64,000 nucleotides of DNA. It comes from Hydrolagus colliei (lineage: Eukaryota). How positions within the stretch are numbered: the first letter of the stretch is position 1; every line of letters starts with the position of its first letter. The stretch is from NCBI GenBank assembly GCA_035084275.1, contig CM068752.1, forward strand, positions 8,122,001-8,186,000, in the 5' to 3' direction. The notes under the pieces are model-generated. The model was given only the letters and a program-made list of their open reading frames with translations. It was not told where the DNA came from and searched no databases. Shown piece by piece: positions 10,085 through 52,569 of this stretch. The position numbers were made by a program, and so were the translations under genes.

Positions 10085-10155
10085 TCTCGCTTTAAGAAAA
10101 GCACAGTGCAGTTATTGGTCGGGACTCGTTGTGTCGCTGTCCGCCAATAAGGAGC
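10085..10155 (+). promoter_or_regulatory. CSE/CGCT-box promoter element of g3
   Basis: TCTCGCTTTAAG..TGCAGTTATTGG..TGTGTCGCTGTCCGCCAATAAGGAGC. Confidence 0.85.
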
Positions 10156-10403
10156 AGAAATGTTACGAGAGAGATCTATCCACCCCTCCCATTTCGCCAG
10201 ACGCAGAAAAGAATAGAAGGGGAAGGCTGCGCAGTGTCTCCGTCAGCAGTGAATGTGGGACCCCGATCAGGAAACAACTCTGGGTGGGTGCGTATATCAG
10301 TTTAAAATCGAGACCAAGGTATATTTTTGTCGAAGTACTTTGTTCCCGGGACAATCACTGGAGTAACACATTCGGTGTATGGAATTAAATAGAAGAATCA
10401 ACA

Positions 10404-14770: not shown

Positions 14771-17176
14771 ATGGCGAGCGCGCTCAGCTGCAGCCAGTCT
14801 CTCGTTTTGCTGCTTGTGCTCTGGGAACTTGTATCCGGCCAAATACACTACTCTGTTCCCGAGGAGACGGAACACGGCGCCTTTGTGGGGAACCTTGTGG
14901 AAGATTTAGGACTAAACGTTCGGGTGTTGGCGGATCGCAAATTCCGCCTGGTCTCCGGTGACAGAAAGCTGTATCTGAAGGTAAATTTTGACAACGGTTT
15001 TTTGTTTGTGAATGAAAGAATCGATAGGGAACAGCTATGTGGGCAAAGCTCTAGCTGCTCGCTTTCCTTTGAAGTCACGGTTGAGACTCCCATGGAATTA
15101 CATCGCGTGGAAGTGGAGATAGTGGACATAAATGATAATTCTCCCGGTTTTCTGAAAGGAGCTACCGACTTGGAGATCAGTGAATTAATTCTTCCGGGAG
15201 CGCGTTTTCCCCTCGAGAGCGCGCACGACCCGGACGTGGGCATCAACACAATCAGCTCTTATCAGATTAGTTCGAACGAATTCTTCGGGCTCAACGTACA
15301 GGCGAGAAATGATGGTACTAAAATTGTCGACTTATTGTTGGAAAAAGCTTTGGATCGGGAGCAACAGCCATCTCTTCAGCTGATCCTGACGGCAATTGAT
15401 GGTGGGAACCCGCACAGATCTGGCACCGCTGAGATTAGTATCACTGTACTGGATGCCAACGATAATGCACCTGTATTCAATCATGAAATCTACAGGGCAA
15501 ACGTTCCAGAAAACGCATCTAAAGGGACGTTAGTAACACAAATTAGTGCCGTCGATTCGGACGCGGGTACAAATGCTGGGATAACATATACCTTCTCCAA
15601 ACATTCCGCCGAAAGGGGGCGCGAGCTTTTCAGATTGGATTCTGAAACTGGTGAGATAATAGTGCAAGGAATTCTGGATTTTGAGGAAGCCAGTGTTTAC
15701 GAAATTTATGTACAAGCGACAGACAACGGCACACCTCCCATGACCGGTCATGCCAAAGCTATTGTCAAACTAATCGACGTGAATGATAACGCCCCTGAGA
15801 TAAAATTAAGTTCAGTCACCAACATGATTCCGGAAGATGCCATACCCGGGACTATGGTGGCTGCTATAACTGTTAGCGATGTAGATTCTGGAGAAAACGG
15901 ACAGGTCCGTTGCCAGATCACTACAAATATTCCATTTAAACTTCACAACATTCCAATCAATCAATACACATTGACTGTGGGTGACAAGTTGGACCGCGAA
16001 AAGCAATCTTCATACAACATCTCCATTCTAGCCTGGGATGGAGGAACCCCACCGCTGTCAGCAAACAGAACTATGTTGGTGACGGTGTCTGATGTGAATG
16101 ACAACGCCCCAGAGTTCACCCAATCTTCCTATAACGTTTACCTGATGGAGAACAATACTCCCGGGGCTTCCATATTTGCAGTGACCGCTTTAGATCCCGA
16201 TGTGGATCTGAATGGGGAAGTCTCCTATTCTGTTGTGGAGAACCAGATCCAAGACGTGTCAGCCACCGCTTATATCAGTATCAGCTCCAACAGCGGGAAC
16301 ATTTATGCGCTGCGCTCCTTTGACTACGAGCAACTGAAGCATTTCCAGATCAAAGTTCAAGCCCAGGATGGCGGGTCTCCCCCAATGAGCAGTGTTGCCC
16401 TCGTGAATGTTATAATCCTGGATCAAAATGACAATGCGCCATTTATTGTTTCACCTGTAACACGGAATAACTCAACAGCGGTTGAGATACCACTGCGGTC
16501 AACATTCCCAGGTTATTTAGTCACTAAGGTGTTGGTCACTGATGCAGATTCTGGTCAGAACGCACGGCTCTCCTATCAGCTGTTGGACGCCACTGATCCC
16601 AGTGTGTTCAGTGTGGGGCTGCTCACTGGGGAGATCAGAATACTGAGAAGGTTGTTGGAGGAAGACGCCCCAACACAAAGTCTGGTCATTTTGGTGAAGG
16701 ACAAAGGACAGCCCAGCCTGTCCAGCACGGCCACTCTTCTCTTCTCACTCCTCTCCAATGTCACTGACATTGTGTCTGAACCAGGTGACCGAACCAACAT
16801 TCGAGAGATTTTTTCGCATTTAAATCTTTATGCAATCGTCGGTTTGGGATCAACATCCGTTTTATTTCTTGTCACTATAATTCTGTTGGTTGCCATCAAG
16901 TGTAAACAAGACAGAAATAGCAGCGAAGGATACAGCTCAACAGTTTGTTGTTGTTTGGGTCAGGGAATTACTGAGGATAATTTGAAACGAAGGCCTGCAC
17001 CACGTCAAGCTGTAAATTATTCTGGAGTTGGAGCTGAACCTTACCATTACAGTATTTGCTTATCGCCAGAGTCATCCAAGAGCGAATTTCTGTACCTAAA
17101 GCCCTACACTGCCACACTGCCCTACAGTGATATCAGTGTTAACAATACAACCGCCAGACACGAATTTAAACAGTAA
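14771..17176 (+). CDS. g4: clustered protocadherin (group B), 801 aa
   Basis: Intact ORF; ends ...VNNTTARHEFKQ* like the other group B genes. Confidence 0.95.
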   Translation: MASALSCSQSLVLLLVLWELVSGQIHYSVPEETEHGAFVGNLVEDLGLNVRVLADRKFRLVSGDRKLYLKVNFDNGFLFVNERIDREQLCGQSSSCSLSFEVTVETPMELHRVEVEIVDINDNSPGFLKGATDLEISELILPGARFPLESAHDPDVGINTISSYQISSNEFFGLNVQARNDGTKIVDLLLEKALDREQQPSLQLILTAIDGGNPHRSGTAEISITVLDANDNAPVFNHEIYRANVPENASKGTLVTQISAVDSDAGTNAGITYTFSKHSAERGRELFRLDSETGEIIVQGILDFEEASVYEIYVQATDNGTPPMTGHAKAIVKLIDVNDNAPEIKLSSVTNMIPEDAIPGTMVAAITVSDVDSGENGQVRCQITTNIPFKLHNIPINQYTLTVGDKLDREKQSSYNISILAWDGGTPPLSANRTMLVTVSDVNDNAPEFTQSSYNVYLMENNTPGASIFAVTALDPDVDLNGEVSYSVVENQIQDVSATAYISISSNSGNIYALRSFDYEQLKHFQIKVQAQDGGSPPMSSVALVNVIILDQNDNAPFIVSPVTRNNSTAVEIPLRSTFPGYLVTKVLVTDADSGQNARLSYQLLDATDPSVFSVGLLTGEIRILRRLLEEDAPTQSLVILVKDKGQPSLSSTATLLFSLLSNVTDIVSEPGDRTNIREIFSHLNLYAIVGLGSTSVLFLVTIILLVAIKCKQDRNSSEGYSSTVCCCLGQGITEDNLKRRPAPRQAVNYSGVGAEPYHYSICLSPESSKSEFLYLKPYTATLPYSDISVNNTTARHEFKQ

Positions 17177-21215: not shown

Positions 21216-23621
21216 ATGGCGTATGCGCTCAGCTGCGGGCCGACATTCATTTTGCTGTTGTTTGTCTCGGACCTGATATCTGGGCAAATTCACTATTCGA
21301 TTCCCGAGGAACTGGAGCAAGGCGCCTTTGTTGGGAATATCGTTAGAGATTTGGGGTTAAAGATTGAGAAATTGTCGGCTCGCAAATTCCGGCTGGTGTC
21401 TGATGACAGCCATCAATATCTGAAGGTAAATTTTGCAAATGGGATTCTATTTGTGAATGAAAGAATCGACAGAGAAGAGCTGTGTGGACAGAGCCCGACC
21501 TGTTCCCTTTCCTTTGAAGCAGCGGTTGATAATCCTTTGGAGGTGCATGAAATTGAAGTAGAGATTTTAGACATTAATGATAATATTCCTAGGTTTCCAA
21601 GTGAAAAGATTGCCTTGGAAATTTTTGAGTCAATATTGCCAGGAGCGAGCTTCCCTCTCGAGAGTGCGTATGATCCTGACGTGGGCACGAATACAATCAA
21701 TGCTTACCAGATCAGTTCTAACGATTATTTCGGCCTGAAGGTGCAGACGAGAAGCGATGGTAGTAAAATTGTGGAGTTGTTGTTAGAGAAAGCTTTGGAT
21801 CGTGAACAGGAGTCAGCGATTATTCTTGTCCTGACTGCTTCTGATGGCGGAAATCTCCACAGATCTGGTACTTCTGAGATAAGTATCACTATTCTGGATA
21901 TTAATGACAATGCCCCCGTATTTAATTCAGAAATATACAGGGCAAGTCTGCCAGAAAATGCAGCGAATGGGACACTAGTTATTCGAATCAACGCTGCTGA
22001 TTTAGACGAAGGTACAAATGCTGAGGTAAAATATAGCTTCTCCAAACATTCTGCCGAAAGGGGGCGCCAGGTTTTTCAGTTAAATCCAGAAACTGGTGAC
22101 ATACAGGTTCATGGAGAACTAGACTATGAGGAGTTAAATAGTTATGAACTTTATGTACAAGCAACAAACAAAGGTACACCCCCAATGGTGGCGCAGTCAA
22201 AAGTTATTGTCAACTTAATGGATATCAATGATAATGCTCCTGAAATAAAATTGAGTTCGATGTCACGTGTCGTCTCAGAAGATGCTGCAATCGGAAATGT
22301 GGTGGCTTTGATCAGTGTATCGGATCGTGATTCCGGCGAAAACGGACAAGTTCAATGCAAGGTTCCCAGGAACATCCCGTTCAGACTTGAAAAGTCTCCC
22401 AACAATCAGTACAAGTTGGTTGTGGGCGAGGCGTTGGATCGAGAGAAGGAATCCTCGTACAACATCTCCATTCTAGCCTGGGATGGAGGAACCCCACCGC
22501 TGTCAGCAAACAGAACTATGTTGGTGACGGTTTCTGATGTGAATGACAACGCCCCAGAGTTCACCCAATCTTCCTATAACGTTTACCTGATGGAGAACAA
22601 CACTCCCGGGGCCTCCATAGTTGCAGTGACCGCTTTAGATCCCGATGTGGACCAAAACGGGGAAGTCTCCTATTCTGTTGTGGAGAACCAGATCCAAGAC
22701 GTGTCAGCCACCGCTTACATCAGTATCAGCTCCAACAGCGGGAACATTTACGCGCTGCGATCCTTTGACTACGAACAACTGAAGCATTTCCAGATCAAAG
22801 TTCAAGCCCAGGATGGCGGGTCTCCCCGAATGAGCAGTGTTGCCCTCGTGAATGTTATAATCCTGGATCAAAATGACAATGCGCCATTTATTGTTTCACC
22901 TGTAACACGGAATAACTCAACAGCGGTGGAGATACCACTGCGGTCAACATTCCCAGGTTATTTAGTCACTAAGGTGATGGGCACTGATGCAGATTCTGGT
23001 CAGAACGCACGGCTCTCCTATCAGCTGTTGGACGCCACTGATCCCAGTGTGTTCAGTGTGGGGCTGCTCACTGGGGAGATCAGAACACTGAGAAGGCTGT
23101 TGGAGGAAGACGCCCCAACACAAAGTCTGGTCATTTTGGTGAAGGACAATGGACAGCCCAGCCTGTCCAGCACGGCCACTCTCCTCTTCTCACTCCTCTC
23201 CAATGTCACTGACATTGTGTCTGAACCACGTGACTATTCTTACATTCGAGACAATTTTTCGCATTTAAATCTTTACGCAATTATCGGTTTAGGATCGACG
23301 TCATTTATATTGCTCCTTACCATAGTTCTGTTGGTTGCCATCAAGTGCAAACAGGATAGAAATATCACTGAAGGATACGGTAGCGCAATTTGTTGTTGTT
23401 TGGCTCAGGGAATTTCTGATGATAACTTTAATCGACGGCCTTCACCACATCAAGCTGTAAATTATTCTGGAGTTGGAGCTGAACCTTATCATTACAGTAT
23501 TTGCTTATCGCCGGAGTCATCCAAGAGCGAATTTCTGTATCTGAAGCCCTACACTGCCACCTTGCCCTACAGTGATATCAGTGTTAACAACACAACCGCC
23601 AGACACGAACTTAAACAGTAA
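21216..23621 (+). CDS. g6: clustered protocadherin (group B), 801 aa
   Basis: Intact ORF with SP-6EC-TM-tail. Confidence 0.95.
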   Translation: MAYALSCGPTFILLLFVSDLISGQIHYSIPEELEQGAFVGNIVRDLGLKIEKLSARKFRLVSDDSHQYLKVNFANGILFVNERIDREELCGQSPTCSLSFEAAVDNPLEVHEIEVEILDINDNIPRFPSEKIALEIFESILPGASFPLESAYDPDVGTNTINAYQISSNDYFGLKVQTRSDGSKIVELLLEKALDREQESAIILVLTASDGGNLHRSGTSEISITILDINDNAPVFNSEIYRASLPENAANGTLVIRINAADLDEGTNAEVKYSFSKHSAERGRQVFQLNPETGDIQVHGELDYEELNSYELYVQATNKGTPPMVAQSKVIVNLMDINDNAPEIKLSSMSRVVSEDAAIGNVVALISVSDRDSGENGQVQCKVPRNIPFRLEKSPNNQYKLVVGEALDREKESSYNISILAWDGGTPPLSANRTMLVTVSDVNDNAPEFTQSSYNVYLMENNTPGASIVAVTALDPDVDQNGEVSYSVVENQIQDVSATAYISISSNSGNIYALRSFDYEQLKHFQIKVQAQDGGSPRMSSVALVNVIILDQNDNAPFIVSPVTRNNSTAVEIPLRSTFPGYLVTKVMGTDADSGQNARLSYQLLDATDPSVFSVGLLTGEIRTLRRLLEEDAPTQSLVILVKDNGQPSLSSTATLLFSLLSNVTDIVSEPRDYSYIRDNFSHLNLYAIIGLGSTSFILLLTIVLLVAIKCKQDRNITEGYGSAICCCLAQGISDDNFNRRPSPHQAVNYSGVGAEPYHYSICLSPESSKSEFLYLKPYTATLPYSDISVNNTTARHELKQ

Positions 23622-30982: not shown

Positions 30983-33388
30983 ATGGCGAATGCGCTCAGC
31001 TGCGGGCCGTCCTTCATTTTGCTGTTGTTTGTCTCGGACCTGGTATCTGGGCAAATTCACTACTCGATTCCCGAGGAACTGGAGCAAGGCGCCTTTGTTG
31101 GGAATATCGTTAGAGATTTGGGTTTAAAAATTGAGAAATTGTCGGCTCGCAAGTTCCGGCTGGTGTCTGATGACAGCCATCAGTATCTGAAGGTAAATTT
31201 TGAAAATGGGATTTTATTTGTGAATGAAAGAGTCGACAGAGAAGAGCTGTGTGGACAGAGCCCGACCTGTTCCCTTTCCTTTGAAGCATCGGTTGATAAT
31301 CCTTTGGAAATGTATTCTGTTAACGTAGAGATTGTGGATATTAATGATCACTCGCCGAATTTTCTGAAAGAAAAAATTTACTTAGAGATTGGTGAGTCGA
31401 TTGCACCAGGTGCGAGCTTCCCTCTCCAGAGCGCGCATGATGCCGATGTGGGCGTGAACACAATCAGTACTTACCAGATTAGTTCTAACGATTATTTCGG
31501 CTTGAATGTACAGACTACAAGTGATGGTGGTAAAATTGTGGAGCTGTTGTTGGAAAAGGCTTTGGATCGGGAGCAGGAGTCAACGTTTCAGCTTGTCCTA
31601 ATGGCAGTTGATGGTGGCAACCCACATAGGTCTGGCATAGCGGAGATTAGTATTATTGTGCTGGACGCCAATGATAATGCACCTATATTCAACCATGAAA
31701 TATACAAGGCAAGTATACCAGAAAATGCCCCGAAAGGTACCTCAGTAACACAAATCAAAGCTGCTGATTTGGATACAGGTACAAATGCAGAGGTAAAATA
31801 TAGTTTTTCTAGTCACTCTTCCGAAAGGGGGCGTGAGATTTTCCTGCTGGATTCGGAAAGTGGTGAGATAAATGTTAATGGAGATCTGAATTTTGAGGAA
31901 TCAAATGTGTTTGAACTCTATGTACAAGCGACAGACAATGGTGCATTTGCACTGACGGGTCGTGCCAAAGTTGTTATCAAAGTAATTGACGTGAACGATA
32001 ACGCCCCTGAGATAAAACTGAGTTCGACCTCACGTGTGGTCCCAGAAGATGCTGCAATCGGAAATGTAGTGGCTTTGATCAGTGTATCGGATCGTGATTC
32101 CGGCGAAAACGGACAAGTTCATTGCAAGATTCCAAGGAACATCCCATTCAGACTTGAAAAGTCTCCCAACAACCAATACAAGTTGGTTGTGGGCGAGGCG
32201 TTAGATCGAGAGAAAGAATCCTCGTACAACATCTCCATTCTAGCCTGGGATGGAGGAACCCCACCGCTGTCAGCAAACAGAACTATGTTGGTGACGGTTT
32301 CTGATGTGAATGACAACGCCCCAGAGTTCACCCAATCTTCCTATAACATTTACCTGATGGAGAACAACACTCCCGGGGCCTCCATATTTGCAGTGACCGC
32401 TTTAGACCCCGATGTGGACCAGAATGGGGAAGTCTCCTATTCTGTTGTGGAGAACCAGATCCAAGACGTGTCAGCCACCGCTTACATCAGTATCAGCTCC
32501 AACAGCGGGAACATTTACGCGCTGCGCTCCTTTGACTACGAACAACTGAAGCATTTCCAGATCAAAGTTCAAGCCCAGGATGGCGGGTCTCCTCCAAGGA
32601 GCAGTGGTGCCCTCGTGAATGTTATAATCCTGGATCAAAATGACAATGCGCCATTTATTGTTTCACCAGTAACACGGAATAACTCAACAGCGGTGGAGAT
32701 ACCACTGCGGTCAACATTCCCAGGTTATTTAGTCACTAAGGTGTTGGGCACTGATGCAGATTCTGGTCAGAACGCTCGGCTCTCCTATCAGCTGTTGGAC
32801 GCCACTGATCCCAGTGTGTTCAGTGTGGGGCTGCTCACTGGGGAGATCAGAACACTGAGAAGGTTGTTGGAGGAAGACGCCCCAACACAAAGTCTGGTCA
32901 TTTTGGTGAAGGACAATGGACAGCCCAGCATGTCCAGCACGGCCACTCTCCTCTTCTCACTCCTGTCCAATGCCACTGACATTGTGCCTGAAGAAAATGA
33001 CCGATTGAATATTCGGGACGATTTGTCGCATCTAAATCTTTATGCAATCGTCGGTTTGGGATCAACATCCTTTTTATTTCTCGTCACTATAATTCTGTTG
33101 GTTGCTATCAAGTATAAACAGGACAGAAATATCAGCGAAGGATACAGCTCAACAGTTTGTTGTTGTTTGAGTCAGGGAATTTCCGAGCATAACTTTAGTC
33201 GAAGGTCTGCACCACATCAGGCAATAAATTATTCTGGAGTTGGAGCTGAACCTTACCATTACAGTATTTGCTTATCGCCAGAGTCATCGAAGAGCGAATT
33301 TCTGTACCTAAAGCCCTACACTGCCACCTTACCCTACAGTGATGTCAGTGTTAACAATACAACCGCCAGACACGAATTTAAACAGTAA
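30983..33388 (+). CDS. g9: clustered protocadherin (group B), 801 aa
   Basis: Intact ORF with SP-6EC-TM-tail. Confidence 0.95.
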   Translation: MANALSCGPSFILLLFVSDLVSGQIHYSIPEELEQGAFVGNIVRDLGLKIEKLSARKFRLVSDDSHQYLKVNFENGILFVNERVDREELCGQSPTCSLSFEASVDNPLEMYSVNVEIVDINDHSPNFLKEKIYLEIGESIAPGASFPLQSAHDADVGVNTISTYQISSNDYFGLNVQTTSDGGKIVELLLEKALDREQESTFQLVLMAVDGGNPHRSGIAEISIIVLDANDNAPIFNHEIYKASIPENAPKGTSVTQIKAADLDTGTNAEVKYSFSSHSSERGREIFLLDSESGEINVNGDLNFEESNVFELYVQATDNGAFALTGRAKVVIKVIDVNDNAPEIKLSSTSRVVPEDAAIGNVVALISVSDRDSGENGQVHCKIPRNIPFRLEKSPNNQYKLVVGEALDREKESSYNISILAWDGGTPPLSANRTMLVTVSDVNDNAPEFTQSSYNIYLMENNTPGASIFAVTALDPDVDQNGEVSYSVVENQIQDVSATAYISISSNSGNIYALRSFDYEQLKHFQIKVQAQDGGSPPRSSGALVNVIILDQNDNAPFIVSPVTRNNSTAVEIPLRSTFPGYLVTKVLGTDADSGQNARLSYQLLDATDPSVFSVGLLTGEIRTLRRLLEEDAPTQSLVILVKDNGQPSMSSTATLLFSLLSNATDIVPEENDRLNIRDDLSHLNLYAIVGLGSTSFLFLVTIILLVAIKYKQDRNISEGYSSTVCCCLSQGISEHNFSRRSAPHQAINYSGVGAEPYHYSICLSPESSKSEFLYLKPYTATLPYSDVSVNNTTARHEFKQ

Positions 33389-37470: not shown

Positions 37471-38443
37471 ATGGCGAATGCGCTCAGCTGCGGGCGGTCC
37501 TTCATTTTGCTGTTGTTTGTCTCGGACCTGGTATCTGGGCAAATCCACTATTCCATTCCCGAGGAACTGGAGCAAGGCGCCTTTGTTGTGAATATCGTTA
37601 GAGATTTGGGGATAAAGATTGAGGAATTGTCGGCTCGCAAGTTCCGGCTGGTGTCTGATGACAGCCGTCAGTATCTGAAGGTAAATTTTGAAAATGGGAT
37701 TTTATTTGTGAATGAAAGAATCGACAGAGAAGAGCTGTGTGGACAGAGCCCGACCTGTTCCCTTTCATTTGAAGCATTGGTTGACAATCCTTTAGAGGTG
37801 CATCCTATTGAAGTAGAGATTGTGGATATTAATGATAATCCGTCAAATTTTCCAAAAGAAAAAATAACGTTGCAGATTGGTGAATGGATTTCACCGGGAG
37901 CGAGCTTCCCTCTGGAGAGCGCGGATGATCCGGACGTGGGCGTGAACACAATCAGTACATATCAGATCAGTTCTAACTGTCCAGAGAGTGGCCTGTCCAG
38001 CACGGCCACTCTCCTTTTCTCACTCCTGTCCAATGTCACTGACATTGTGCCTGAACCAATTGACCGATACAATATTGGGGGCGACTTTTCTAATCTAAAC
38101 ATTTATGTAATTGTCGGATTGGGATCAACTTCCTTTATATTTCTTGTCACTATAACTCTGCTGGTTGCTGTCAAGTGTAACCAAGACAGAAATGTCACTG
38201 AGGGGTACAACTTCACAGTTTGTTGTTGTTTGGGTCAGGGGATTCGTGACGATAACTTTACTCGAAGGCCTGCAGCACACCAACCTATAAATTATACCGG
38301 AGCTGGAGCTGAAATTTACCATTTGCTTTTCCCCAGAGTCATCGAAGAGTGAGTTTGTTTACCTGAAGCCCTACACTGCCACGTTACCGTACAGTGATAT
38401 GAGTGTCAACAACACAACCGCCAGACGTGAATTGAAGCAGTAA
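37471..38443 (+). pseudogene. g11: group B protocadherin with an in-frame ~1.4-kb deletion (EC2-EC6) and an 8-nt tail frameshift; ORF 37471-38352, 293 aa
   Basis: EC2 ...YQISSN joins via CPESG to the end of EC6 (LSSTATLLFSLL). TM is retained. The fossil tail continues out of frame to ...ELKQ* at 38443. Confidence 0.85.
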
Positions 38444-40364: not shown

Positions 40365-42362
40365 ATGATGAAAATTATCAGCGACTGGATGTTGTGTTGG
40401 ATGGTCCTGTATTCGGTCTTCTTGCTTTGTGTCCCAGAGCTGACCTGAAGAAGACAAATTCGCTACTCAATTCTCGAAGAACTGGAGTGTGGCGCCTTTG
40501 TTAGGAATGTTGTTGAGGATATGTGAATGGATAACCAGAACTACCAAGAAGGAACTGGAGGTTGGATTTGAGGATATAAATCAGTATTTCGAGGTAAATG
40601 TCAAAACTGGGTGGTTGTTTGTGAATGAAATGGCCGATAGTTCTCTAGGTGTGGCAAACACCTAACTGTTTAATTTAGTTTGAGAGAACGATGGAAAATC
40701 CTTTCGAAATTCAAAGCGTTAATGTGCAGATATTAGATATAAAAGACAATCCTCTGAATTTTCTGGAGCAAGAGCATTTGCATTTCCTTGCAAATCTGAG
40801 CTGATAGGACTGAGAGCAATTTCCTCTGGAGAGCGGGCAAGACTCAGACGAGCGCATGAATGGAATCAACACTTACTGCATAAATTCGAATGTGTACTTC
40901 ATCGTGCAAATCCCAATTGGAACCGGTGGTGCTTAGGTGATCGGATTACGTTACGGAAGTTGTTAGACCGTGAACTATAGATTCAGTCTGATGGAAAACA
41001 CGCCAAGCTGGTGATAAAGCTTAACGCCGACGAAGCCGATGAGGGATCTAATTGTGAGGTTAGTTATTATTTTAGTAATGCTGCCACACAGAAAGTGTGA
41101 GCATAGTTCAGTTCACCATGGACTGGAAAGATTAGTGCTCAAAGTTCATTTGATTTTGAAGAAACGAATGGCTATGAGCTTGACTTGGACGCTGCAGCAC
41201 ACCAGCCATGGCAGGACATTCCAATCGTGTTGATGCCCTAATTGATGTGAACGATATCGCTCCAATTACAAATCTGACTGATGTATCCAGCACTATCTTG
41301 GAGTGCGCTGTACCTGGAATTACGATAACTACAATTATAGTAACAGACACAAATCCTGGGAAGATTAGGCAAGTCTGATGCCAGATACTTATGAATGATC
41401 CGTTTAAACTTTAGTCTTTGTTGGATATTCAATCAAGGTTGGTCACACGTAACATGCTGGACCGTGAAATATCCCGATTTTATAACATTACCGCATTAGC
41501 CTGGGATGCAGACACCCCATCTCTTACCACGAACAAAACTATCCCAGTGCTAGTGTCTGATATCAATGACAAAGCGCCCCGATTTAACCATACCACATAT
41601 GTGATGGAGAACAATTCCTACATCTCTTATGCCATCCTGGAGATTCGGACAAGGACCGTGTCATCATTCCTTAAGTAATATTGACTGAAAAAGTGGGAAC
41701 GTTTACGCGCTGCGATCCTTTGACTATCGGCCGCTGAAAAACATTCAGCTCCAAGTCCAGGCGCGGGATTCCGGGTCCCCGCCACTGAGCAGCAGCGCCG
41801 CAGTGAATGTGATTATCTTGGATCAAAATGATAACGCTCCCGTGGTGGTTTCCCCTGTAACCCGGCCAATGGACAACCAAGCCTCTTCACCAGCGTCACC
41901 ATCGTGTTTGTAATCGTAGCCAATGCTTTCGTGACGACACTGCAACACATTGATCAACTGGGACAGTTTGAGCATTTCTCTGATCTGCATCTGTAATTGA
42001 TTATCACGTTTTCCATTACATCGATTAGATTTCTGGTTACCATAATGGTCCTTGTTGCCATGAAATATCCCCAGGATGTGAAGATTACGCACGGATACAG
42101 CTCTGGATTTTGTTGTTGCAGAAGGGACTTGTTGGCCGGTTTTAATCGGACATCCGCCCCAAAGGATACCCTAACTTATGCCGGAGTGTGAGGGAAAGCA
42201 CTCCCATTCCTGAACTTTCTAACTATAGATGTCCTCTGCACCCTGAAACAACCAAAGGCGAATTTCCATTTGTTGCAGTCATACAGTTCAATTTTGCCAC
42301 AAAATAATGCGAAAATAGTTGGTACTAATGTGGATATCGCAAGTGCTGGTGGGAATATGTAG
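40365..42362 (+). pseudogene. g12: heavily decayed group A protocadherin pseudogene
   Basis: Remnants [63 protein letters not shown] and TM/FCCC, with many stops, frameshifts and deletions. Ends are approximate. Confidence 0.9.
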
Positions 42363-42549
42363 ATGGCGTTCAATGGGCGAATCCTCAAACTTAAATGATT
42401 TAATTGACAAACACACTTTTTTCTCTCTCGCAGAAATGATCCTGTCTTGATCTCGAAAATCTTGGTCTATATATTGTAATCCTTAAGTGCAAGCAATCGC
42501 ACGAATCGTGCAGGATATCGACAGATAAGTCCCCACTTTGGCTTTGTTA

Positions 42550-43104: not shown

Positions 43105-43173
43105 CAGCTTTAAGACCAGTTTAGTGCAATTATTGGTCAAGGCTGCTCGTGTCGCTGTCTGCCAATGAGGAGC
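43105..43173 (+). promoter_or_regulatory. CSE/CGCT-box promoter element of g13
   Basis: CAGCTTTAAG..TGCAATTATTGG..CGTGTCGCTGTCTGCCAATGAGGAGC. Confidence 0.85.
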
Positions 43174-43410
43174 TGGGAGGCTGCGAGAGATCTACCCCCT
43201 TTTCAGCCTCACAAAAGACCGACCATAATCACGGAGGAAAGACAAGCGTTTAAGCCGTTGTGCAGTGTTCCGAACGATTCGAGTCGATTGTTTCCAAGTG
43301 TTGCGATCTCATGTGGGTGTTTATGAATCATTAACAAATGTTCTTTGTGGATTACCAAAATTATTCGGGTGTCTAAGCGTTTTTTTTTGTTGTTTAAAAA
43401 CCCAGTTAAA

Positions 43411-45789
43411 ATGGCGAATGGACTCGGCTGCTGGGCGTCTTTCTTTTTCCTGATAACATTCCCAGGTTTGGTTTCCGCACAAGTTCGGTATTCCATTGTG
43501 GAAGAATTGAAACACGGCGCCTTTGTGGGGAATATTGCAGAAGATTTGGGATTGAAGGTGCAGGACCTGAACACTCGCAAATGCCGGCTGCTCTCCGATA
43601 ACAACAAACAGTATTTGGCCATGAATCTGAATAATGGGATTTTATTTGTTAACGAAAGAATGGACAGAGAACAGCTGTGCGGGCAGAGCTCCTTGTGTTC
43701 CATTGCCTTTGAGGTAAGGATAGAAAACCCTTTGGAAATGTTTGGTTTTGAAGTGGAGGTTTTAGATGTAAACGACAATTCTCCCAGATTCCCGCAGAGC
43801 TCATTCTCCATTCAAGTCGCAGAGTCCATCGCACTCGGAGCGCGCTTCCTTCTCGAGAGGGCGCAAGATCCCGATGTGGGGACTAACACAGTCAGTACCT
43901 ATCTGATCAGTTCAAACGAATATTTCGGCCTGAAAATGCAGACTAGAAGCGATGGGAAAAAAGTGGCCGAGTTGTCCTTAGAGAAACCATTGGATCGAGA
44001 AAGACAGTCCGTTTTAAAACTGGTTCTAACGGCCTTTGACGGTGGGAGTCCAGCTAGATCTGGTACAACTCAGATCATAATCACAATATTGGACATAAAT
44101 GATAATGTACCCGTATTTGACCGTGAAGTTTATAGAGTACGTATGCTGGAAAACTCTCCCAGGGGTAGCTTTGTGACAAAAATTCAAGCAAAGGATTTGG
44201 ATGAAGGAATAAATGCTGAGATAAAATATTCTTTCAGTGGTCATGCCGGACAGGAAGAGCAAGAATTATTTTCGTTGGACCCGAAAACTGGAGATATCAG
44301 GGTTCAAGGAATATTGGATTATGAAAAAGCTAATGTGTTTGAACTTGATGTACAAGCGGTGGACAATGGTGCATTCGCCATGACAGGGCGCTCGAAAGTT
44401 GTTGTCGCTTTAATTGATGTAAACGACAACGCCCCTGGGATCAAATTAACCTCAGTGTCCAGCACAGTGCGTGAGGATGCTGTGCCAGGGACTGTGATAG
44501 CGATGATCAGTGTAACAGACAGGGATATTGGGAAAAATGCAGATGTTCAATGTCAGATCCCCTTGCATCTCCCGTTTAAACTACAGAAATATCCAATTAA
44601 TAAGTATAAGTTAATCACAAATAATAGGATGGACCGTGAAAAAATCGAATTCTACAATATAACTGTAACGGCCTGGGACTCGGGATCTCCCCCACTCTCA
44701 ACAAATAAAACTATCCTGGTAACAGTGTCTGACATCAATGACAACGCGCCCCGCTTTGACCAGCCCTCCTACACCGCATATGTGATGGAGAATAACGCTC
44801 CGGGTGACTCCATTCTATCAGTTACAGCTTTGGATCCTGATTCAGACCAGAATTCCTACATCTCCTATTCTATTCTGGAGAATCACATACAGGAGCTGAT
44901 GTCCTTTCCTTATATCAGTGTTGACACCAAAAGTGGGAACGTTTACGCGCTGCGATCCTTTGATTACGAGCAGCTCAAAAACTTTCAGCTCCAAGTCCAG
45001 GCGCGGGATTCCGGGTCCCCGCCACTGAGCAGCAGCGCCGCAGTGAATGTGATTATCTTGGATCAAAATGACAACGCTCCCGTGGTGGTTTCCCCTGTAA
45101 CCCGGAACGGATCAGCAACTGTGGATCCGGTGCCTCAGTCGGCACCTGCAGGTTACTTGGTGACCAAGGTAATGGCGACTGATGCTGATTCTGGTCAGAA
45201 CGCACGGCTTTCATATCAATTGCGTAAAGCTACCGATCCCAGTCTAATCAACATCGGACTCAAAAGTGGAGACATCAGGTTAATCCGAAGTGTATCTAGC
45301 CACGATGCCACCTCCCAAACTCTCCTTATCTCGGTAACTGACAACGGGCAGCCAAGCCTCTCTGCTACAGTGACTGTCGCATTTTCAATAGTTCCCAATG
45401 TCACAGAAAAGTATTTTGAACGCAGTAATGTTGTGGAAAACTCTAAGAATTTTTCTGATTTGAATCTGTATTTAATTGTCACATTAGGATCAACCTCCTT
45501 GATATTCCTTTTGACCATTATGGTTCTAATTGCCATAAAATGCCACCAAGATAGTGACAATGGAGACGACGGTAATTTCTGCTGTTGCAGAATGAGAGAT
45601 TCAAGGAATAATTTTAGACGGAGATCTGCACCCAAAGAATCTCTGAACTATAGTGGGGTTAGAGACAGTGTCCCTATTCCTAGTTCTTACAATTACAGAT
45701 TCAGTGTTTCTCCAGACTCTGCCAAACCTGATTTTTTATTTCTAAAACACTATGCTCCAACCCTACCCCATAACCCTGAAAATCTCTGA
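43411..45789 (+). CDS. g13: clustered protocadherin (group A), 792 aa
   Basis: ATG at 43411 (MANGLGCW); SP-6EC-TM-tail; tail shortened by an apparent frameshift. Confidence 0.95.
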   Translation: MANGLGCWASFFFLITFPGLVSAQVRYSIVEELKHGAFVGNIAEDLGLKVQDLNTRKCRLLSDNNKQYLAMNLNNGILFVNERMDREQLCGQSSLCSIAFEVRIENPLEMFGFEVEVLDVNDNSPRFPQSSFSIQVAESIALGARFLLERAQDPDVGTNTVSTYLISSNEYFGLKMQTRSDGKKVAELSLEKPLDRERQSVLKLVLTAFDGGSPARSGTTQIIITILDINDNVPVFDREVYRVRMLENSPRGSFVTKIQAKDLDEGINAEIKYSFSGHAGQEEQELFSLDPKTGDIRVQGILDYEKANVFELDVQAVDNGAFAMTGRSKVVVALIDVNDNAPGIKLTSVSSTVREDAVPGTVIAMISVTDRDIGKNADVQCQIPLHLPFKLQKYPINKYKLITNNRMDREKIEFYNITVTAWDSGSPPLSTNKTILVTVSDINDNAPRFDQPSYTAYVMENNAPGDSILSVTALDPDSDQNSYISYSILENHIQELMSFPYISVDTKSGNVYALRSFDYEQLKNFQLQVQARDSGSPPLSSSAAVNVIILDQNDNAPVVVSPVTRNGSATVDPVPQSAPAGYLVTKVMATDADSGQNARLSYQLRKATDPSLINIGLKSGDIRLIRSVSSHDATSQTLLISVTDNGQPSLSATVTVAFSIVPNVTEKYFERSNVVENSKNFSDLNLYLIVTLGSTSLIFLLTIMVLIAIKCHQDSDNGDDGNFCCCRMRDSRNNFRRRSAPKESLNYSGVRDSVPIPSSYNYRFSVSPDSAKPDFLFLKHYAPTLPHNPENL

Positions 45790-46465
45790 TACCAATGCGG
45801 GAAAAGAATTTGCCCAGGAAGCCAATAGATATTGATTCACTGGCAGTAGTGGAATCATTCGGTTTAAGAATCCAACCTCGATTCATATGATAACAGATAG
45901 AAACGTTAGATGTCAGATGGAATTTTTAAAAAAGTTTTGACCATTAACTTATTATCTTGGACAAAACGTTCCAACAAATATAGAACTGTAAAATTCAACA
46001 CATTGGAACATATGCAACACGAAAATCAATATTATGAATACTAAAGCCAACAAGATATGCACTAATATCGGATTCAAATTTATAGTATTGATATTCAAAG
46101 TCAATTTCGTGGATCAATTATGGCAACCGATTTTACGAAATCAGGAAGATACCCTTAATAAGATCTAAAGGGAGGTTGGAAATCTTTGAGTAAAGCACCA
46201 AAATACGAAGAGGAAATTATTACTGGTTGAGGGGCAGGATAGTGCTACAATTTTAACATCACATTTAATGTAGCTGAGGTGGCACTAAGTCCCACCCACC
46301 CCCCGCCACTCCACCCCCACTCCCAACTCTCCCCCCACTCCCCCCACGATTAAAAGTAACACAGTAAGTTTTTTTTTATAACGCCCATTAAACTCTACAT
46401 AGAATTTGAGAATTTTGAGCGTAGTAGAAAATATATCGCATCGTTCGTACGATGTTCGTGCAAGC

Positions 46466-46534
46466 CAGCTTTAAGGGAACGTTAGTGCAGTTATTGGTCG
46501 GGGCTCTTCGTGTCGCTGTGTGCCAATAAGGAGC
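46466..46534 (+). promoter_or_regulatory. CSE/CGCT-box promoter element of g14
   Basis: CAGCTTTAAG..TGCAGTTATTGG..CGTGTCGCTGTGTGCCAATAAGGAGC. Confidence 0.85.
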
Positions 46535-46770
46535 TGAAACGCAGCTCGAGATCTACCCCATTCTCTTCACAAAGGACAGGCCATAAGCAGAGGGAGGGAG
46601 AGAGAGACGAACAGTGCTTGTGTTTGCCTTGTGGATTCATATTCTGAATGACTGAGTGCCAGTGATTTTGGTCCAAGTTGAACGATGTTTGCGTTCATCA
46701 ATACATCGGTTTTGTCTTGAAAAACAAAACATCATTGGTGGAAACTGTTATGGAATTAACTCAGCCAAAG

Positions 46771-49149
46771 ATGGCGAATACACGCAGCATTTGGGCGTCT
46801 TTCGCTTTCCTCATAATGCTCTCAGGTTTAACGGCTGGATACGTTCAGTATTCAATTCCCGAGGAACTGAAACTCGGCGCCTTTGTAGGGAATATCGCTG
46901 AAGATTTGGGATTGAAGATTCGGGAGCTGGCGATTCGAAAATGTCGGCTGGTCTCTCACAATCAAAAACGATATTTGGAGGTGAATTTGGACAATGGGTT
47001 TTTATTTGTGAACGAAATAATCGACAGAGAACAGCTTTGTGGACCCAGCTCGACCTGTTTCCTTTCCTTTGAGGTAACGATGGAAAATCCTTTCCAAGTG
47101 TATGATTTTGAAATCGAAATATTAGACGTAAACGACAATTCTCCGACATTTCCGAAGAACTCATTTTCCATACAGATTGCCGAGTTGGTCGCCCCAGGAG
47201 CCCGTTTTCCTCTCGAGATGGCGCAAGATCCCGATGTGGGGACTAACACAGTCAGTACCTATCTGATCAGTTCAAACGAATATTTCGGCCTGAAAATGCA
47301 GACTAGAAGCGACGGGAAAAAAGTGGCCGAGTTGTCCTTAGAGAAACCATTGGATCGAGAAAGACAGTCCGTTTTAAAACTGTTTCTAACGGCCTTTGAC
47401 GGTGGGAGTCCAGCTAGATCTGGTACAGCTCAGATCGTAATCACAATATTGGACATAAATGATAATGTACCCGTATTTGACCGTGAAGTTTATAGAGTAC
47501 GTATGCTGGAAAACGCTCCCAAGGGTAGCTTTGTGTCAAAAATTCAAGCAAAGGATTTGGACGAAGGAATAAATGCTGAGGTAAAATATTCTTTCAGTGG
47601 TCATGCCGGACAGGAAGAGCAAGAATTATTTACGTTGGACCCGAAAACTGGAGATATCAGGGTTCAAGGAATATTGGATTATGAAAAAGCTAATGTGTTT
47701 GAACTTGATGTACAAGCGGTGGACAATGGTGCATTCGCCATGACAGGGCGCTCGAAAGTTGTTGTCGCTTTAATTGATGTAAACGACAACGCCCCTGGGA
47801 TCAAATTAACCTCAGTGTCCAGCACAGTGCGTGAGGATGCTGTGCCAGGGACTGTGATAGCGATGATCAGTGTAACAGACAGGGATATTGGGAAAAATGC
47901 AGATGTTCAATGTCAGATCCCCTTGCATCTCCCGTTTAAACTACAGAAATATCCAATTAATAAGTATAAGTTAATCACAAATAATAGGATGGACCGTGAA
48001 AAAATCGAATTCTACAATATAACTGTAACGGCCTGGGACTCGGGATCTCCCCCACTCTCAACAAATAAAACTATCCTGGTAACAGTGTCTGACATCAATG
48101 ACAACGCGCCCCGGTTTGACCAGCCCTCCTACACCGCATATGTGATGGAGAATAACGCTCCGGGTGACTCCATTCTATCAGTTACAGCTTTGGATCCTGA
48201 TTCAGACCAGAATTCCTACGTCTCCTATTCTATTCAGGAGAATCACAAACAGGAGCTGATGTCCTTTCCTTATATCAGTGTGGACACCAAAAGTGGGAAC
48301 GTTTACGCGCTGCGATCCTTTGATTACGAGCAGCTCAAAAACTTTCAGCTCCAAGTCCAGGCGCGGGATTCCGGGTCCCCACCACTGAGCAGCAGCGCCG
48401 CAGTGAATGTGATTATCTTGGATCAAAATGACAACGCTCCCGTGGTGGTTTCCCCTGTAACCCGGAACGGATCAGCAACTGTGGATCCGGTGCCTCAGTC
48501 GGCACCTGCAGGTTACTTGGTGACCAAGGTGATGGCGACTGATGTTGATTCTGGTCAGAACGCACGGCTTTCATATCAATTGCGTAAAGCTACCGATCCC
48601 AGTCTAATCAACATCGGACTCAAAAGTGGAGACATCAGGTTAATCCGAAGTGTATCTAGCCACGATGCCACCTCCCAAACTCTCCTTATCTCGGTAACTG
48701 ACAACGGGCAGCCAAGCCTCTCTGCTACAGTGACTGTCGCATTTTCAATAGTTCCCAATGTCACAGAAAAGTATTTTGAACGCAGTAATGTTGTGGAAAA
48801 CTCTAAGAATTTTTCTGATTTGAATCTGTATTTAATTGTCACATTAGGATCAACCTCCTTGATATTCCTTTTGACCATTATGGTTCTAATTGCCATAAAA
48901 TGCCACCAAGATAGTGACAATGGAGACGACGGTAATTTCTGCTGTTGCAGAATGAGAGATTCAGGGAATAATTTTAGACGGAGATCTGCACCCAAAGAAT
49001 CTCTGAACTATAGTGGGGTTAGAGACAGTGTCCCTATTCCTAGTTCTTACAATTACAGATTCAGTGTTTCTCCAGACTCTGCCAAACCTGATTTTTTATT
49101 TCTAAAACACTATGCTCCAACCCTACCCCATAACACTGAAAATCTCTGA
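46771..49149 (+). CDS. g14: chimeric clustered protocadherin (5' from g15, 3' from g13), 792 aa
   Basis: ATG at 46771 (MANTRSIW; in-frame ATG also at 46750). SP/EC1 are identical to g15; the rest is near-identical to g13. Confidence 0.93.
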   Translation: MANTRSIWASFAFLIMLSGLTAGYVQYSIPEELKLGAFVGNIAEDLGLKIRELAIRKCRLVSHNQKRYLEVNLDNGFLFVNEIIDREQLCGPSSTCFLSFEVTMENPFQVYDFEIEILDVNDNSPTFPKNSFSIQIAELVAPGARFPLEMAQDPDVGTNTVSTYLISSNEYFGLKMQTRSDGKKVAELSLEKPLDRERQSVLKLFLTAFDGGSPARSGTAQIVITILDINDNVPVFDREVYRVRMLENAPKGSFVSKIQAKDLDEGINAEVKYSFSGHAGQEEQELFTLDPKTGDIRVQGILDYEKANVFELDVQAVDNGAFAMTGRSKVVVALIDVNDNAPGIKLTSVSSTVREDAVPGTVIAMISVTDRDIGKNADVQCQIPLHLPFKLQKYPINKYKLITNNRMDREKIEFYNITVTAWDSGSPPLSTNKTILVTVSDINDNAPRFDQPSYTAYVMENNAPGDSILSVTALDPDSDQNSYVSYSIQENHKQELMSFPYISVDTKSGNVYALRSFDYEQLKNFQLQVQARDSGSPPLSSSAAVNVIILDQNDNAPVVVSPVTRNGSATVDPVPQSAPAGYLVTKVMATDVDSGQNARLSYQLRKATDPSLINIGLKSGDIRLIRSVSSHDATSQTLLISVTDNGQPSLSATVTVAFSIVPNVTEKYFERSNVVENSKNFSDLNLYLIVTLGSTSLIFLLTIMVLIAIKCHQDSDNGDDGNFCCCRMRDSGNNFRRRSAPKESLNYSGVRDSVPIPSSYNYRFSVSPDSAKPDFLFLKHYAPTLPHNTENL

Positions 49150-49825
49150 TACCAATGCGGGAAAATAATTTGCCCAGGAAGCCAATAGATATTGATTCAC
49201 TGGCAGTAGTGGAATCATTCGGTTTAAGAATCCAACCTCGATTCATATGATAACAGATAGAAACGTTAGATGTCAGATGGAATTTTTTAAAAAGTTTTGA
49301 CCATTAAATTATTATCTTGGACAAAACGTTCCAACAAATATAGAACTGTAAAATTCAACACATTGGAACATATGCAACACGAAAATCAATATTATGAATA
49401 CTAAAGCCAACAAGATATGCACTAATATCGGATTCAAATTTATAGTATTGATATTCAAAGTCAATTTCGTGGATCAATTATGGCAACCAATTTTACGAAA
49501 TCAGGAAGATACCCTTAATAAGATCTAAAGGGAGGTTGGAAATCTTTGAGTAAAGCACCAAAATACGAAGAGGAAATTATTACTGGTTGAGGGGCAGGAT
49601 AGTGCTACAATTTTAACATCACATTTAATGTAGCTGAGGTGGCACTAAGTCCCACCCACCCCCCGCCACTCCACCCCCACTCCCAACTCTCCCCCCACTC
49701 CCCCCACGATTAAAAGTAACACAGTAAGTTTTTTTTTATAACGCCCATTAAACTCTACATAGAATTTGAGAATTTTGAGCGTAGTAGAAAATATATCGCA
49801 TCGTTCGTACGATGTTCGTGCAAGC

Positions 49826-49894
49826 CAGCTTTAAGGGAACGTTAGTGCAGTTATTGGTCGGGGCTCTTCGTGTCGCTGTGTGCCAATAAGGAGC
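49826..49894 (+). promoter_or_regulatory. CSE/CGCT-box promoter element of g15 (identical to that of g14)
   Basis: Copy of 46466-46534 at +3360. Confidence 0.85.
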
Positions 49895-50130
49895 TGAAAC
49901 GCAGCTCGAGATCTACCCCATTCTCTTCACAAAGGACAGGCCATAAGCAGAGGGAGGGAGAGAGAGACGAACAGTGCTTGTGTTTGCCTTGTGGATTCAT
50001 ATTCTGAATGACTGAGTGCCAGTGATTTTGGTCCAAGTTGAACGATGTTTGCGTTCATCAATACATCGGTTTTGTCTTGAAAAACAAAACATCATTGGTG
50101 GAAACTGTTATGGAATTAACTCAGCCAAAG

Positions 50131-52569
50131 ATGGCGAATACACGCAGCATTTGGGCGTCTTTCGCTTTCCTCATAATGCTCTCAGGTTTAACGGCTGGAT
50201 ACGTTCAGTATTCAATTCCCGAGGAACTGAAACTCGGCGCCTTTGTAGGGAATATCGCTGAAGATTTGGGATTGAAGATTCGGGAGCTGGCGATTCGAAA
50301 ATGTCGGCTGGTCTCTCACAATCAAAAACGATATTTGGAGGTGAATTTGGACAATGGGTTTTTATTTGTGAACGAAATAATCGACAGAGAACAGCTTTGT
50401 GGACCCAGCTCGACCTGTTTCCTTTCCTTTGAGGTAACGATGGAAAATCCTTTCCAAGTGTATGATTTTGAAATCGAAATATTAGACGTAAACGACAATT
50501 CTCCGACATTTCCGAAGAACTCATTTTCCATACAGATTGCCGAGTTGGTCGCCCCAGGAGCCCGTTTTCCTCTCGAGATGGCGCAAGATCCCGATGTGGG
50601 GATGAACACAGTAAGCAATTACGAAATAAGCAAAAATGAACACTTCGGCCTAAAACAGCACACAAGAAGCGATGGAAAAAAAGTTGCAGAGTTGTCCTTA
50701 GAGAAGCCTTTAGACCGAGAAAGACAGTCAAGCGTTCAGCTGGTGTTGACAGCCTTTGATGATGGCCGACCGCAGAGATCCGGCACAGCTCAGATCCTCA
50801 TTGATTTACTGGATATAAATGACAACCCACCCGTGTTTGACAGTGAGTTGTACGAAGCCAGTTTGGTAGAAGATGCGTCACTGGGTACTTTAGTGAAAAC
50901 AGTTAAAGCTGGTGATTTAGACGAAGGAACAAATGCCGAGGTAAGATATTCTTTTAGCAATTATGTGCCACAAAAAGAGAGAGAATTGTTCGCTATAGAG
51001 CAAAGCACTGGAGAGATTCGACTTCAAGGGGAACTGGATTTCGAAGAATCCAAGGTTTATGAACTGACTGTGCAAGGTGTTGACAATGGTTCGCCCGCAA
51101 TGACGGGTCATTGCAAGGTTGTTGTCACTTTGATTGATGCGAATGATAACAGTCCTGAGATTAAACTCACCTCAGTGTCCAGTAAAGTGAGCGAGAACGC
51201 TGAGACAGGGACGGTGGTAGCTGTGATCGGTGTGACAGACAGTGATTCCGGTAAAAACGGTGAAGTTCAATGTAGAATTGAGGCGAATATTCCATTTAAG
51301 CTGCAAAAAAGCCGAAAGAATCACTACAAGTTAGTCACAAGCCAAATGTTGGACCGTGAAAAGGTCCAAGTGTATAACATCTCTATTTTAGCCTGGGACT
51401 CTGGATCTCCCCCTCTTTCATCCAATAAATCCCTGCAAGTGACAGTGTCTGATGTGAATGACAACGCGCCCCGGTTTGACCAGCCCTCATACACCGCATA
51501 TGTGATGGAGAATAACGCTCCGGGTGACTCCATTCTCTCAGTTACAGCTTTGGATCCTGATTCAGACCAGAATTCCTACGTCTCCTATACAGTCCTGGAG
51601 AATCACATACAGGAAATTATGTCCTTTCCTTATATCAGTGTTGACACCAAAAGTGGGAACGTTTACGCGCTGCGATCCTTTGATTACGAGCAGCTCAAAA
51701 ACTTTCAGCTCCAAGTCCAGGCGCGGGATTCCGGGTCCCCCCCACTGAGCAGCAGCGCCGCAGTGAATGTGATTATCTTGGATCAAAATGACAACGCTCC
51801 CGTGGTGGTTTCCCCTGTAACCCGGAACGGATCAGCAACTGTGGATCCGGTGCCTCAGTCGGCACCTGCAGGTTACTTGGTGACCAAGGTAATGGCGACT
51901 GATGCTGATTCTGGTCAGAACGCACGGCTTTCATATCAATTGCGTAAAGCTACTGATCCCAGTCTAATCAAAATTGGACTAAAAACTGGAGATGTCAAAT
52001 TAATCCGAAGTGTATCGAGCTACGATTCTACTACACAAACTCTCCTTATCTCGGTAGCTGACAACGGGCAGCCAAGCCTCTCTGCTACAGTGACTGTCGC
52101 ATTTTCAATAGTTGCCCATGTCACAGAAAAATATTTTGAACGCAGTAATGTTGTGGAAAACTCTAAGAATTTTTCTGATTTGAATCTGTACTTAATTTTA
52201 ACTTTGGGCTCAACCTCCTTGATATTTCTTTTGACTATCATGGTACTAATTGCCATCAAATGTCGCCAAGATAGTGACAATGGTGACGACTGTAGTTTAT
52301 ACTGTTGCAGAATGAGAGATTCAGGGAATAGTTTTACGCGGAGATCTGCACCCAAAGAATCACTGAACTATACTGGGGTTAGGGAGAATGTCCCTGTTCC
52401 TGGATCTTACAATTACAGATTCAGTGTTTCTCCAGAATCTGCCAAAACTGATTTTCTCTTCCTAAAAACCCTTGCCCCAACCCTACCCCACAGCACTCTC
52501 AAATTATCGGATGTTGGTGGGGCAAAAGAAATAGGCCAGGAAATAATTACTGGTGGAAATAGGTATTGA
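50131..52569 (+). CDS. g15: clustered protocadherin (group A), 812 aa
   Basis: ATG at 50131; intact SP-6EC-TM-tail. Confidence 0.95.
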   Translation: MANTRSIWASFAFLIMLSGLTAGYVQYSIPEELKLGAFVGNIAEDLGLKIRELAIRKCRLVSHNQKRYLEVNLDNGFLFVNEIIDREQLCGPSSTCFLSFEVTMENPFQVYDFEIEILDVNDNSPTFPKNSFSIQIAELVAPGARFPLEMAQDPDVGMNTVSNYEISKNEHFGLKQHTRSDGKKVAELSLEKPLDRERQSSVQLVLTAFDDGRPQRSGTAQILIDLLDINDNPPVFDSELYEASLVEDASLGTLVKTVKAGDLDEGTNAEVRYSFSNYVPQKERELFAIEQSTGEIRLQGELDFEESKVYELTVQGVDNGSPAMTGHCKVVVTLIDANDNSPEIKLTSVSSKVSENAETGTVVAVIGVTDSDSGKNGEVQCRIEANIPFKLQKSRKNHYKLVTSQMLDREKVQVYNISILAWDSGSPPLSSNKSLQVTVSDVNDNAPRFDQPSYTAYVMENNAPGDSILSVTALDPDSDQNSYVSYTVLENHIQEIMSFPYISVDTKSGNVYALRSFDYEQLKNFQLQVQARDSGSPPLSSSAAVNVIILDQNDNAPVVVSPVTRNGSATVDPVPQSAPAGYLVTKVMATDADSGQNARLSYQLRKATDPSLIKIGLKTGDVKLIRSVSSYDSTTQTLLISVADNGQPSLSATVTVAFSIVAHVTEKYFERSNVVENSKNFSDLNLYLILTLGSTSLIFLLTIMVLIAIKCRQDSDNGDDCSLYCCRMRDSGNSFTRRSAPKESLNYTGVRENVPVPGSYNYRFSVSPESAKTDFLFLKTLAPTLPHSTLKLSDVGGAKEIGQEIITGGNRY

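Follow-up and report, generated by a model that had tools for sequence, protein, structure and literature searches.

The window (the whole 64-kb stretch of DNA that was analyzed) holds a same-strand tandem array of single-exon protocadherin genes, which serve neuronal self-recognition, with 15 full open reading frames (ORFs) of ~800 aa each, two disrupted genes at about 37.5 and 40.4 kb, and one gene cut by the window end. A CGCT box was found 254 to 289 bp 5' of the ATG in 15 of the 15 full-length ORFs; the corresponding promoter element (CSE) is defined in PMC7811963. The genes g2, g3, g13, g17, and g18 matched Callorhinchus milii epsilon4, 5, 14, 17, and 18 at ~81 to 95% and in the same order, and we infer a holocephalan other than C. 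milii and place the window in its Pcdh-epsilon subcluster, a type described as cartilaginous-fish-specific (PMC2764143). Exact look-up in the protein collection found 0 of 7 window proteins. The protocadherin Pfam set is present in the three neighboring genes g13, g14, and g15; for g14, it consists of Cadherin_2, five Cadherin domains, and Cadherin_C_2 in a 792-aa ORF of one exon, with a further in-frame ATG at 46750. The closest full-length relative of g14 was C. milii protocadherin epsilon14 (81%), with shark proteins at ~60%. Table 1 lists the features of the region.

Table 1 Features of the g13-g15 region (positions within the window)
Feature	Position	Strand	Remarks
g13 CGCT-box core (CSE-like promoter element)	43151..43157	+	260 bp before ATG
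g13, putative upstream parent, donor of g14 3' part	43411..45789	+	792 aa; orthologue of C. milii Pcdh-epsilon14
Repeat unit 1: g13 3' part, intergenic DNA, g14 promoter and 5' part	43860..47219	+	3360 bp
Crossover interval, g13 template	43860..43882	+	23 bp identical in g13, g14, g15
2-bp deletion near g13 end	45770..45789	+	same in g14 at ~49135; early stop
1113-bp tract: promoter, signal peptide, EC1, EC2 start	46130..47242	+	zero difference from 49490-50602
g14 CGCT-box core	46512..46518	+	identical to g15 box at 49872-49878
g14, putative hybrid gene	46771..49149	+	792 aa, intact frame
Coding part of g14 contributed by g15: signal peptide, EC1, EC2 strands A-B	46771..47219	+	mature 1-127
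g14 EC domains	EC1 46840-47145, EC2 47146-47472, EC3 47473-47796, EC4 47797-48111	+	
Weak CTCF-like 14-mer at FPLE block, candidate	47211..47224	+	3 mismatches (11/14)
Repeat unit 2: g14 3' part, intergenic DNA, g15 promoter and 5' part	47220..50579	+	3360 bp
Hybrid junction: mature A128-G134, calcium-binding AxDxDxG loop	47220..47242	+	23-bp crossover interval
g13-derived part of g14: remaining EC2, EC3-EC6, TM, tail	47243..49149	+	
g15, putative downstream parent, donor of g14 promoter and 5' part	50131..52569	+	812 aa; ORF intact
Crossover interval, g15 template	50580..50602	+	g14/g15 identity ends at 50602

Positions 43851-47242 and 47211-50602 form a tandem repeat with a period of 3360 bp, 25 mismatches, and no indels, an overall difference of ~0.7%. 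Ungapped identity at an offset of 3360 was 97 to 100% per 100-bp bin across 43901-47200 and 63 to 83% in the genic bins outside the repeat (43401-43900 and 47201-48100), and nowhere else in the window does a pair approach ~99% identity over kilobases. The 3360-bp duplication proposed in an earlier, sequence-only reading of this DNA was thus confirmed. The 32-bp block that it placed at 43851, 47211, and 50571 was also found as described; at its sole variable base, g13 has G where g14 and g15 have T, which confines the switch to the 23 identical bases that follow. No exact tract shared by g13 and g15 within EC1-EC4 is longer than this interval, and the junction is in homologous register, with the codon frame kept and no insertion or deletion. 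The idea that the block is a special hotspot was rejected, as a 23-bp tract is unexceptional at 72% identity (P = 0.24) and the block encodes the invariant residues A128, D130, D132, and G134.

The sequence-only reading also had the switch overlap a candidate exonic CTCF motif. The distance from the CGCT box to the CTCF-like block is 697 bp in g14 and g15 and 698 bp in g13, and the mammalian alpha eCBS lies ~700 bp downstream of the promoter CSE (PMC7811963); the 14-mer overlaps the crossover interval by 5 bases, with g14 carrying the g15 version. The distance is right, but the match of 11 of 14 to a CTCF consensus is weak, at a level reached 94 times in the window (62 expected), and its register is shifted 2 bp from that of 13 of 18 gene loci. 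CTCF as a cause of the crossover was dropped, as no evidence supports it.

From the promoter through mature residue 127, g14 and g15 are identical; afterwards, g14 is ~99% identical to g13. At the protein level, g14 and g15 share 100% of the signal peptide, EC1, and EC2 103-127 and then 77% of the remaining EC2, 56% of EC3, and 64% of EC4. The corresponding g14/g13 values are 52% (signal peptide), 68% (EC1), and 64% (EC2 103-127), followed by 96, 95, and 100%, and g13 and g15 are 65% identical to each other in EC1-4. The parentage suggested earlier, a g15 front on a g13 back with the g15 promoter, is borne out by these segment identities and by trees. For mature residues 1-127, g14 grouped with g15 (100) and g13 with epsilon14 (100); for 135-424, g13 grouped with g14 (100), with epsilon14 as sister (100).

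The outgroup also bears on the direction of the event. Against epsilon14, g13 is 86% identical over the full length (EC1 91%, EC2 start 88%, EC3 87%, and EC4 81%), and g14 is 67 to 68% identical before the junction and 81 to 87% after it. As g13 is a whole-length epsilon14 orthologue, the ancestral order would have been g13-g15, with g14 added later, and g14 appears to be a derived hybrid from an unequal crossover whose direction is fixed by the outgroup. The layout and the in-frame junction support the same origin, which the sequence-only reading had proposed. There are three genes between g13 and g17 here and two missing numbers between epsilon14 and epsilon17 in C. milii, a comparison that assumes that the numbering follows gene order. 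Neither g15 nor g16 had a C. milii orthologue among the proteins recovered by similarity searches and a scan of 319 stored proteins (best 67 to 69%), and the fused C. milii models contained no g15 or g16 segment. The intactness of g15 as a parent is accordingly read from the repeat geometry. The searches turned up no C. milii protein that joins a g15-type front to an epsilon14-like remainder; the g15-type front of g14 is without a retrieved orthologue, and g13 and the g14 back group with epsilon14.

The 2-bp deletion near the ends of g13 and g14 makes their tails ~16 aa shorter than that of epsilon14, and it predates the duplication. The old tail reading frame (45770-45830 and 49130-49190) is readable to its stop in g13, and an extra stop was gained in g14. 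No donor-like site was found near the g13 and g14 ends, and these ORFs end where epsilon14 ends. Loss by g13 and g14 of a splice donor to constant exons was dropped as an idea, since the stops of epsilon14 and g15 are at the homologous position; the anole paper gives constant exons for alpha, gamma, delta, mu, and nu only. Elsewhere in the array, strong donor-like sites (AG/GTGAG or AG/GTGGG) lie 10 to 43 bp past the stops of g1, g3, and g17 (3899, 12881, and 60080) and may mark introns in the 3' UTR or what is left of splicing to constant exons.

Within the repeat, 24 differences separate the copies, all within 43953-46129. By part, they number 4 in the EC2 remainder, 6 in EC3, 0 in EC4, 6 in EC5, 2 in EC6, 2 in TM/tail, and 4 in the 3' flank, with none in 641 bp of promoter or in the 472 bp from the signal peptide to the junction. 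The scattered differences noted earlier thus exist, but their spread is uneven, the last 1113 bp having none (P = 0.0017). As an argument against an assembly artefact they are weak, as differences between alleles would look no different; better arguments are that no gap is present and that the 23-bp junction is in register.

Such an artefact, in which two haplotypes or a template-switch chimeric read were joined in tandem, is improbable in our judgment. A ~0.7% difference with symmetric private changes would also fit alleles, the 1113-bp identical stretch adjoins the junction, and, with 0 of 7 window proteins in the protein collection, there is no independent record. However, the 64000 bases contain 0 non-ACGT letters and no gap lies between the copies, whereas false duplications on the same scaffold are most often gap-separated (PMC9516828). 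At the join, which is in exact codon register, the paralogues (72% identical) have just 23 bases in common; elsewhere in the array, identical tracts of 100 to 330 bp are resolved. The copies differ by 13 amino acids, where g13 and epsilon14 differ by 92, and this seems in our judgment many for alleles. The duplication is probably real DNA, for which the private changes on both copies and the dN/dS given below also count.

The 13 amino-acid differences between g13 and g14 lie past the junction, 6 derived in g13 and 7 in g14; the 92 between g13 and epsilon14 fall over the same 638 codons, so that the g13/g14 distance is one-seventh of that to the outgroup. The dN/dS between g13 and g14 is 0.64 (13 N and 6 S), a value that exceeds 0.2 (one-sided P = 0.013) and does not differ from 1. 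Copying of these differences from other paralogues was rejected; g14 agrees with g15 or the consensus at several of them, yet the outgroup splits the changes 6:7 and no single donor emerged.

The identical 1113-bp tract calls for an extra event, either conversion or a young inter-allelic origin. Under the latter, which we regard as possible though doubtful, a crossover between homologues with differing g13 alleles would have made the g14 back from another g13 allele, and the duplication might still be segregating as a copy-number variant. The lack of any difference across the g15-derived 1113 bp would then need no conversion, and copy-number variants are common in the human PCDH clusters (PMC4151104 and PMC8653519). 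Against this, g13 alleles 1% apart with a dN/dS of 0.64 would be needed beside an invariant g15 promoter, and the shorter identical tracts in the repeat (481 and 418 bp; residual clustering P = 0.04) suggest that conversion acts here anyway.

Judged by pS, gene conversion is plainly active in this array: the mean is 0.60 to 0.68 in EC1-4 vs 0.10 in EC5 for five paralogues and 0.57 in EC2 vs 0.03 in EC6 for another group of seven genes. The resulting ratios between domains of ~7 and ~17 indicate strong concerted evolution; ratios of 1.8 to 2.3 for the elephant shark are cited as "limited conversion" in the anole paper (PMC2764143), a comparison across different methods that serves as a lead only. 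In EC5, sequences cluster with their own species and not with their orthologues, C. milii epsilon4, 5, and 14 falling together (1421-12866, 43411-52569 for EC5-EC6, and 14771-36639 in the window). Six paralogues share EC1 at 87 to 94% and the start of EC2 at only 52 to 76%, and mosaic genes are routine here. Between g6 and g9 (21216-23621 and 30983-33388), EC4 is 96% and EC2-3 68% identical, with the exchange beginning near the EC3/EC4 border, which looks like an earlier event that joined EC4 to different front halves. The gene g4 (14771-17176) has a divergent promoter and EC1-EC4 (~70%) and an EC5-EC6 95 to 97% identical to that of g5-g10. The pseudogene at 37471-38443 retains an intact promoter and EC1, followed by a ~1.4-kb deletion from EC2 to EC6 and a frameshift. 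The one at 40370-42380 is heavily decayed, yet ~41690-41870 is nearly identical to the g13-type EC5-EC6 junction, which suggests recent conversion into a dead gene.

Exact g13/g15 tracts of at least 20 bp cover 23 of 679 bp within EC1-4 and 656 of 679 bp past EC4, so that a crossover at EC2 would belong to the rarer class. This distribution is also what favors an origin in two steps, in which a crossover in EC5-EC6 duplicated g15 and a long conversion from g13 then overwrote EC2-EC4. That sequence of events is very unlikely; it predicts fewer differences in EC2-EC4, and 10 in 869 bp were observed there vs 14 in 1378 bp downstream, with no deficit, and a junction at the same 23 bp would still be required.

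The preferred origin is a single unequal crossover. In an ancestral array where g15 came next after g13, the g15 of one chromatid would have paired with the g13 of the other, with the exchange falling inside the 23 bp common to both in the EC2 calcium-binding loop. The product would be g13, hybrid, and g15, with the gain of one 3360-bp unit, as in the anti-Lepore layout. Afterwards, the copies would have gathered ~1% differences under loosened constraint, and gene conversion would have kept some tracts identical, including that from the promoter to EC1.

For the protein, the sequence-only reading expected an EC1 and an EC4 that had not evolved together. The EC1 of g14 does come from g15 and its EC4 from g13, but the claim was incomplete, as the break falls after EC2 strands A-B. 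Published EC2:EC3 interface positions include 111-128 (PMC5106212 and PMC8901172), at or before the junction, which makes the EC2:EC3 interface of g14 hybrid as well as EC1:EC4. Among the contacts between EC2 and EC3 are 111:294, 125:253, and 128:257; specificity resides in both interfaces (PMC5106212), with EC2:EC3 weighted more heavily in other work (PMC5001838 and bioRxiv 493106). In the EC2 155-161 loop, the positions checked are the same in g13 and g15. The front face of g14 would thus effectively be that of g15 and its back face that of g13. The residue numbering of g14 is colinear with that of mouse alpha7. The model of g14 EC1-4, for which the underlying alignment took in one long teleost protein, has a mean pLDDT of 90.9 and shows a normal predicted monomer fold, with the junction in the loop after strand 122-124 and a Foldseek TM of up to 0.90 to clustered protocadherin EC1-4 structures.

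There are 8 amino-acid differences between g13 and g14 in EC2-EC3 and 0 in EC4; in the approximate numbering used, none of the 8 is on the interface positions mapped from the literature. The residues that separate mouse beta6 and beta8 are 41, 117, 125, 369, and 371 (PMC8901172). These map to 40, 116, and 124 here by alignment offset and to ~373 and ~375 as inferred from alignment end points. At these five positions, g13 has D, S, L, I, and K; g15 has H, L, P, K, and H; and g14 has H, L, P, I, and K. The mouse beta6 R41N/S117I/L125P mutant has the same layout, with front-half residues of one isoform and EC3-EC4 of another, and the beta6/beta8 double and triple mutants behave intermediately as a class (PMC8901172). 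The analogy is loose, as beta6 and beta8 are 92% identical and g13 and g15 only 65% in EC1-4. Relative to epsilon14, changes on the g13 lineage (43480-44751) include L124 (P in every other gene examined), I373, and K375; lying at likely interface positions, they hint at a recent drift of g13 specificity.

The g14 gene would be transcribed from a g15-type promoter and probably chosen independently of g15. In mouse, the choice between duplicated identical promoters is still stochastic (PMC4151104), so that the promoter shared by g14 and g15 need not mean co-expression. The protein would present the g15 EC1 and EC2 A-B face together with the g13 EC3-EC4 face. In an antiparallel, two-fold trans dimer, g14:g13 would combine one g13:g13 side with one g14:g14 side, and g14:g15 would be roughly half g15:g15 and half g14:g14. 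With the dimer energy taken as front(a):back(b) + front(b):back(a), that of g14:g13 at the time of origin would be the mean of the two homodimer energies if the terms are additive, a treatment that ignores cooperativity and interdomain angles. On this treatment, g14 would bind both parents if it binds itself and would otherwise be a weak partial binder. EC1/EC4 chimeras still aggregate cells (PMC5001838), and engineered chimeras showed no interaction with the parent until further mutated (bioRxiv 493106).

Most likely, then, g14 has no new private code and is a blurred isoform. We put at about even the chance that it is a bridge binding both parents, which presupposes that the g15 front tolerates the g13 back. 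That it is weak or non-adhesive, mainly diluting parental recognition, is a more tentative proposition. The stronger statement that g14 binds itself, g13, and g15 in trans, breaking strict homophily, and was kept and expressed long enough to diverge by ~1%, is unlikely to hold in full. A new, strictly homophilic specificity seems quite improbable. The mouse isoforms tested were all strictly homophilic even at 92% identity (PMC8901172), the engineered chimeras can fail to bind a parent (bioRxiv 493106), and g14 does have the 8 changes in EC2-EC3. These changes miss the mapped interface positions, however, within the approximate numbering; g14 keeps EC1 and EC2 103-127 exactly as in g15 and EC4 exactly as in g13, with no compensatory change there, although a private code would require changes after the event, and the symmetry argument speaks against it. 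By that argument, a new specificity would be the weakest of the three outcomes that the sequence-only reading had listed. Eventual decay of a copy is plausible because dN/dS is raised in both copies and two neighboring genes are pseudogenes. Taken as a whole, an anti-Lepore-type origin with a blurred-isoform g14 is probably the best explanation of the locus.

The origin of new, strictly self-binding isoforms poses a difficulty, in that duplication gives a redundant copy and a crossover in mid-interface gives a mismatched one. With a hybrid beside both intact parents and few later changes, g14 is a natural experiment, and the trio could tell whether such hybrids are dead, cross-reactive, or new. 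If bridging is true, new isoforms can begin as cross-reactive hybrids and sharpen later. Chimeric duplicates are already known as a type of event, of which g14 is a further case. Literature searches found no natural in-frame hybrid protocadherin, which does not establish its absence from print.

Compared with C. milii Pcdh-epsilon and epsilon14 (B0YN69, P0002), the locus shares the order of five orthologues, the single-exon six-EC form, and the homologous stop; it differs in the shortened g13/g14 tail, and epsilon15 and epsilon16 were not retrieved. The human PCDHA8-10 and PCDHA7-9 deletion variants (PMC8653519) are likewise copy-number changes in a cluster, with partial exons at the deletion ends, and mouse Pcdh-alpha dup(2-c2) (PMC4151104) is an engineered whole-exon duplication giving identical promoters; unlike for g14, the portions of these reports available describe no in-frame hybrid protein. 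Engineered mouse chimeras (PMC8901172, PMC5106212, and bioRxiv 493106) have mixed fronts and backs as well, whereas g14 is natural and has parents 65% identical in EC1-4. The layout is paralleled by the anti-Lepore HBB/HBD duplication hybrids of the beta-globin cluster (PMC4041002), in which unequal crossover joined the 5' part of the downstream gene to the 3' part of the upstream gene with both parents intact alongside, as here. The gene family is another one, and the g14 junction splits a two-fold self-recognition interface, so that specificity rather than expression level would be affected.
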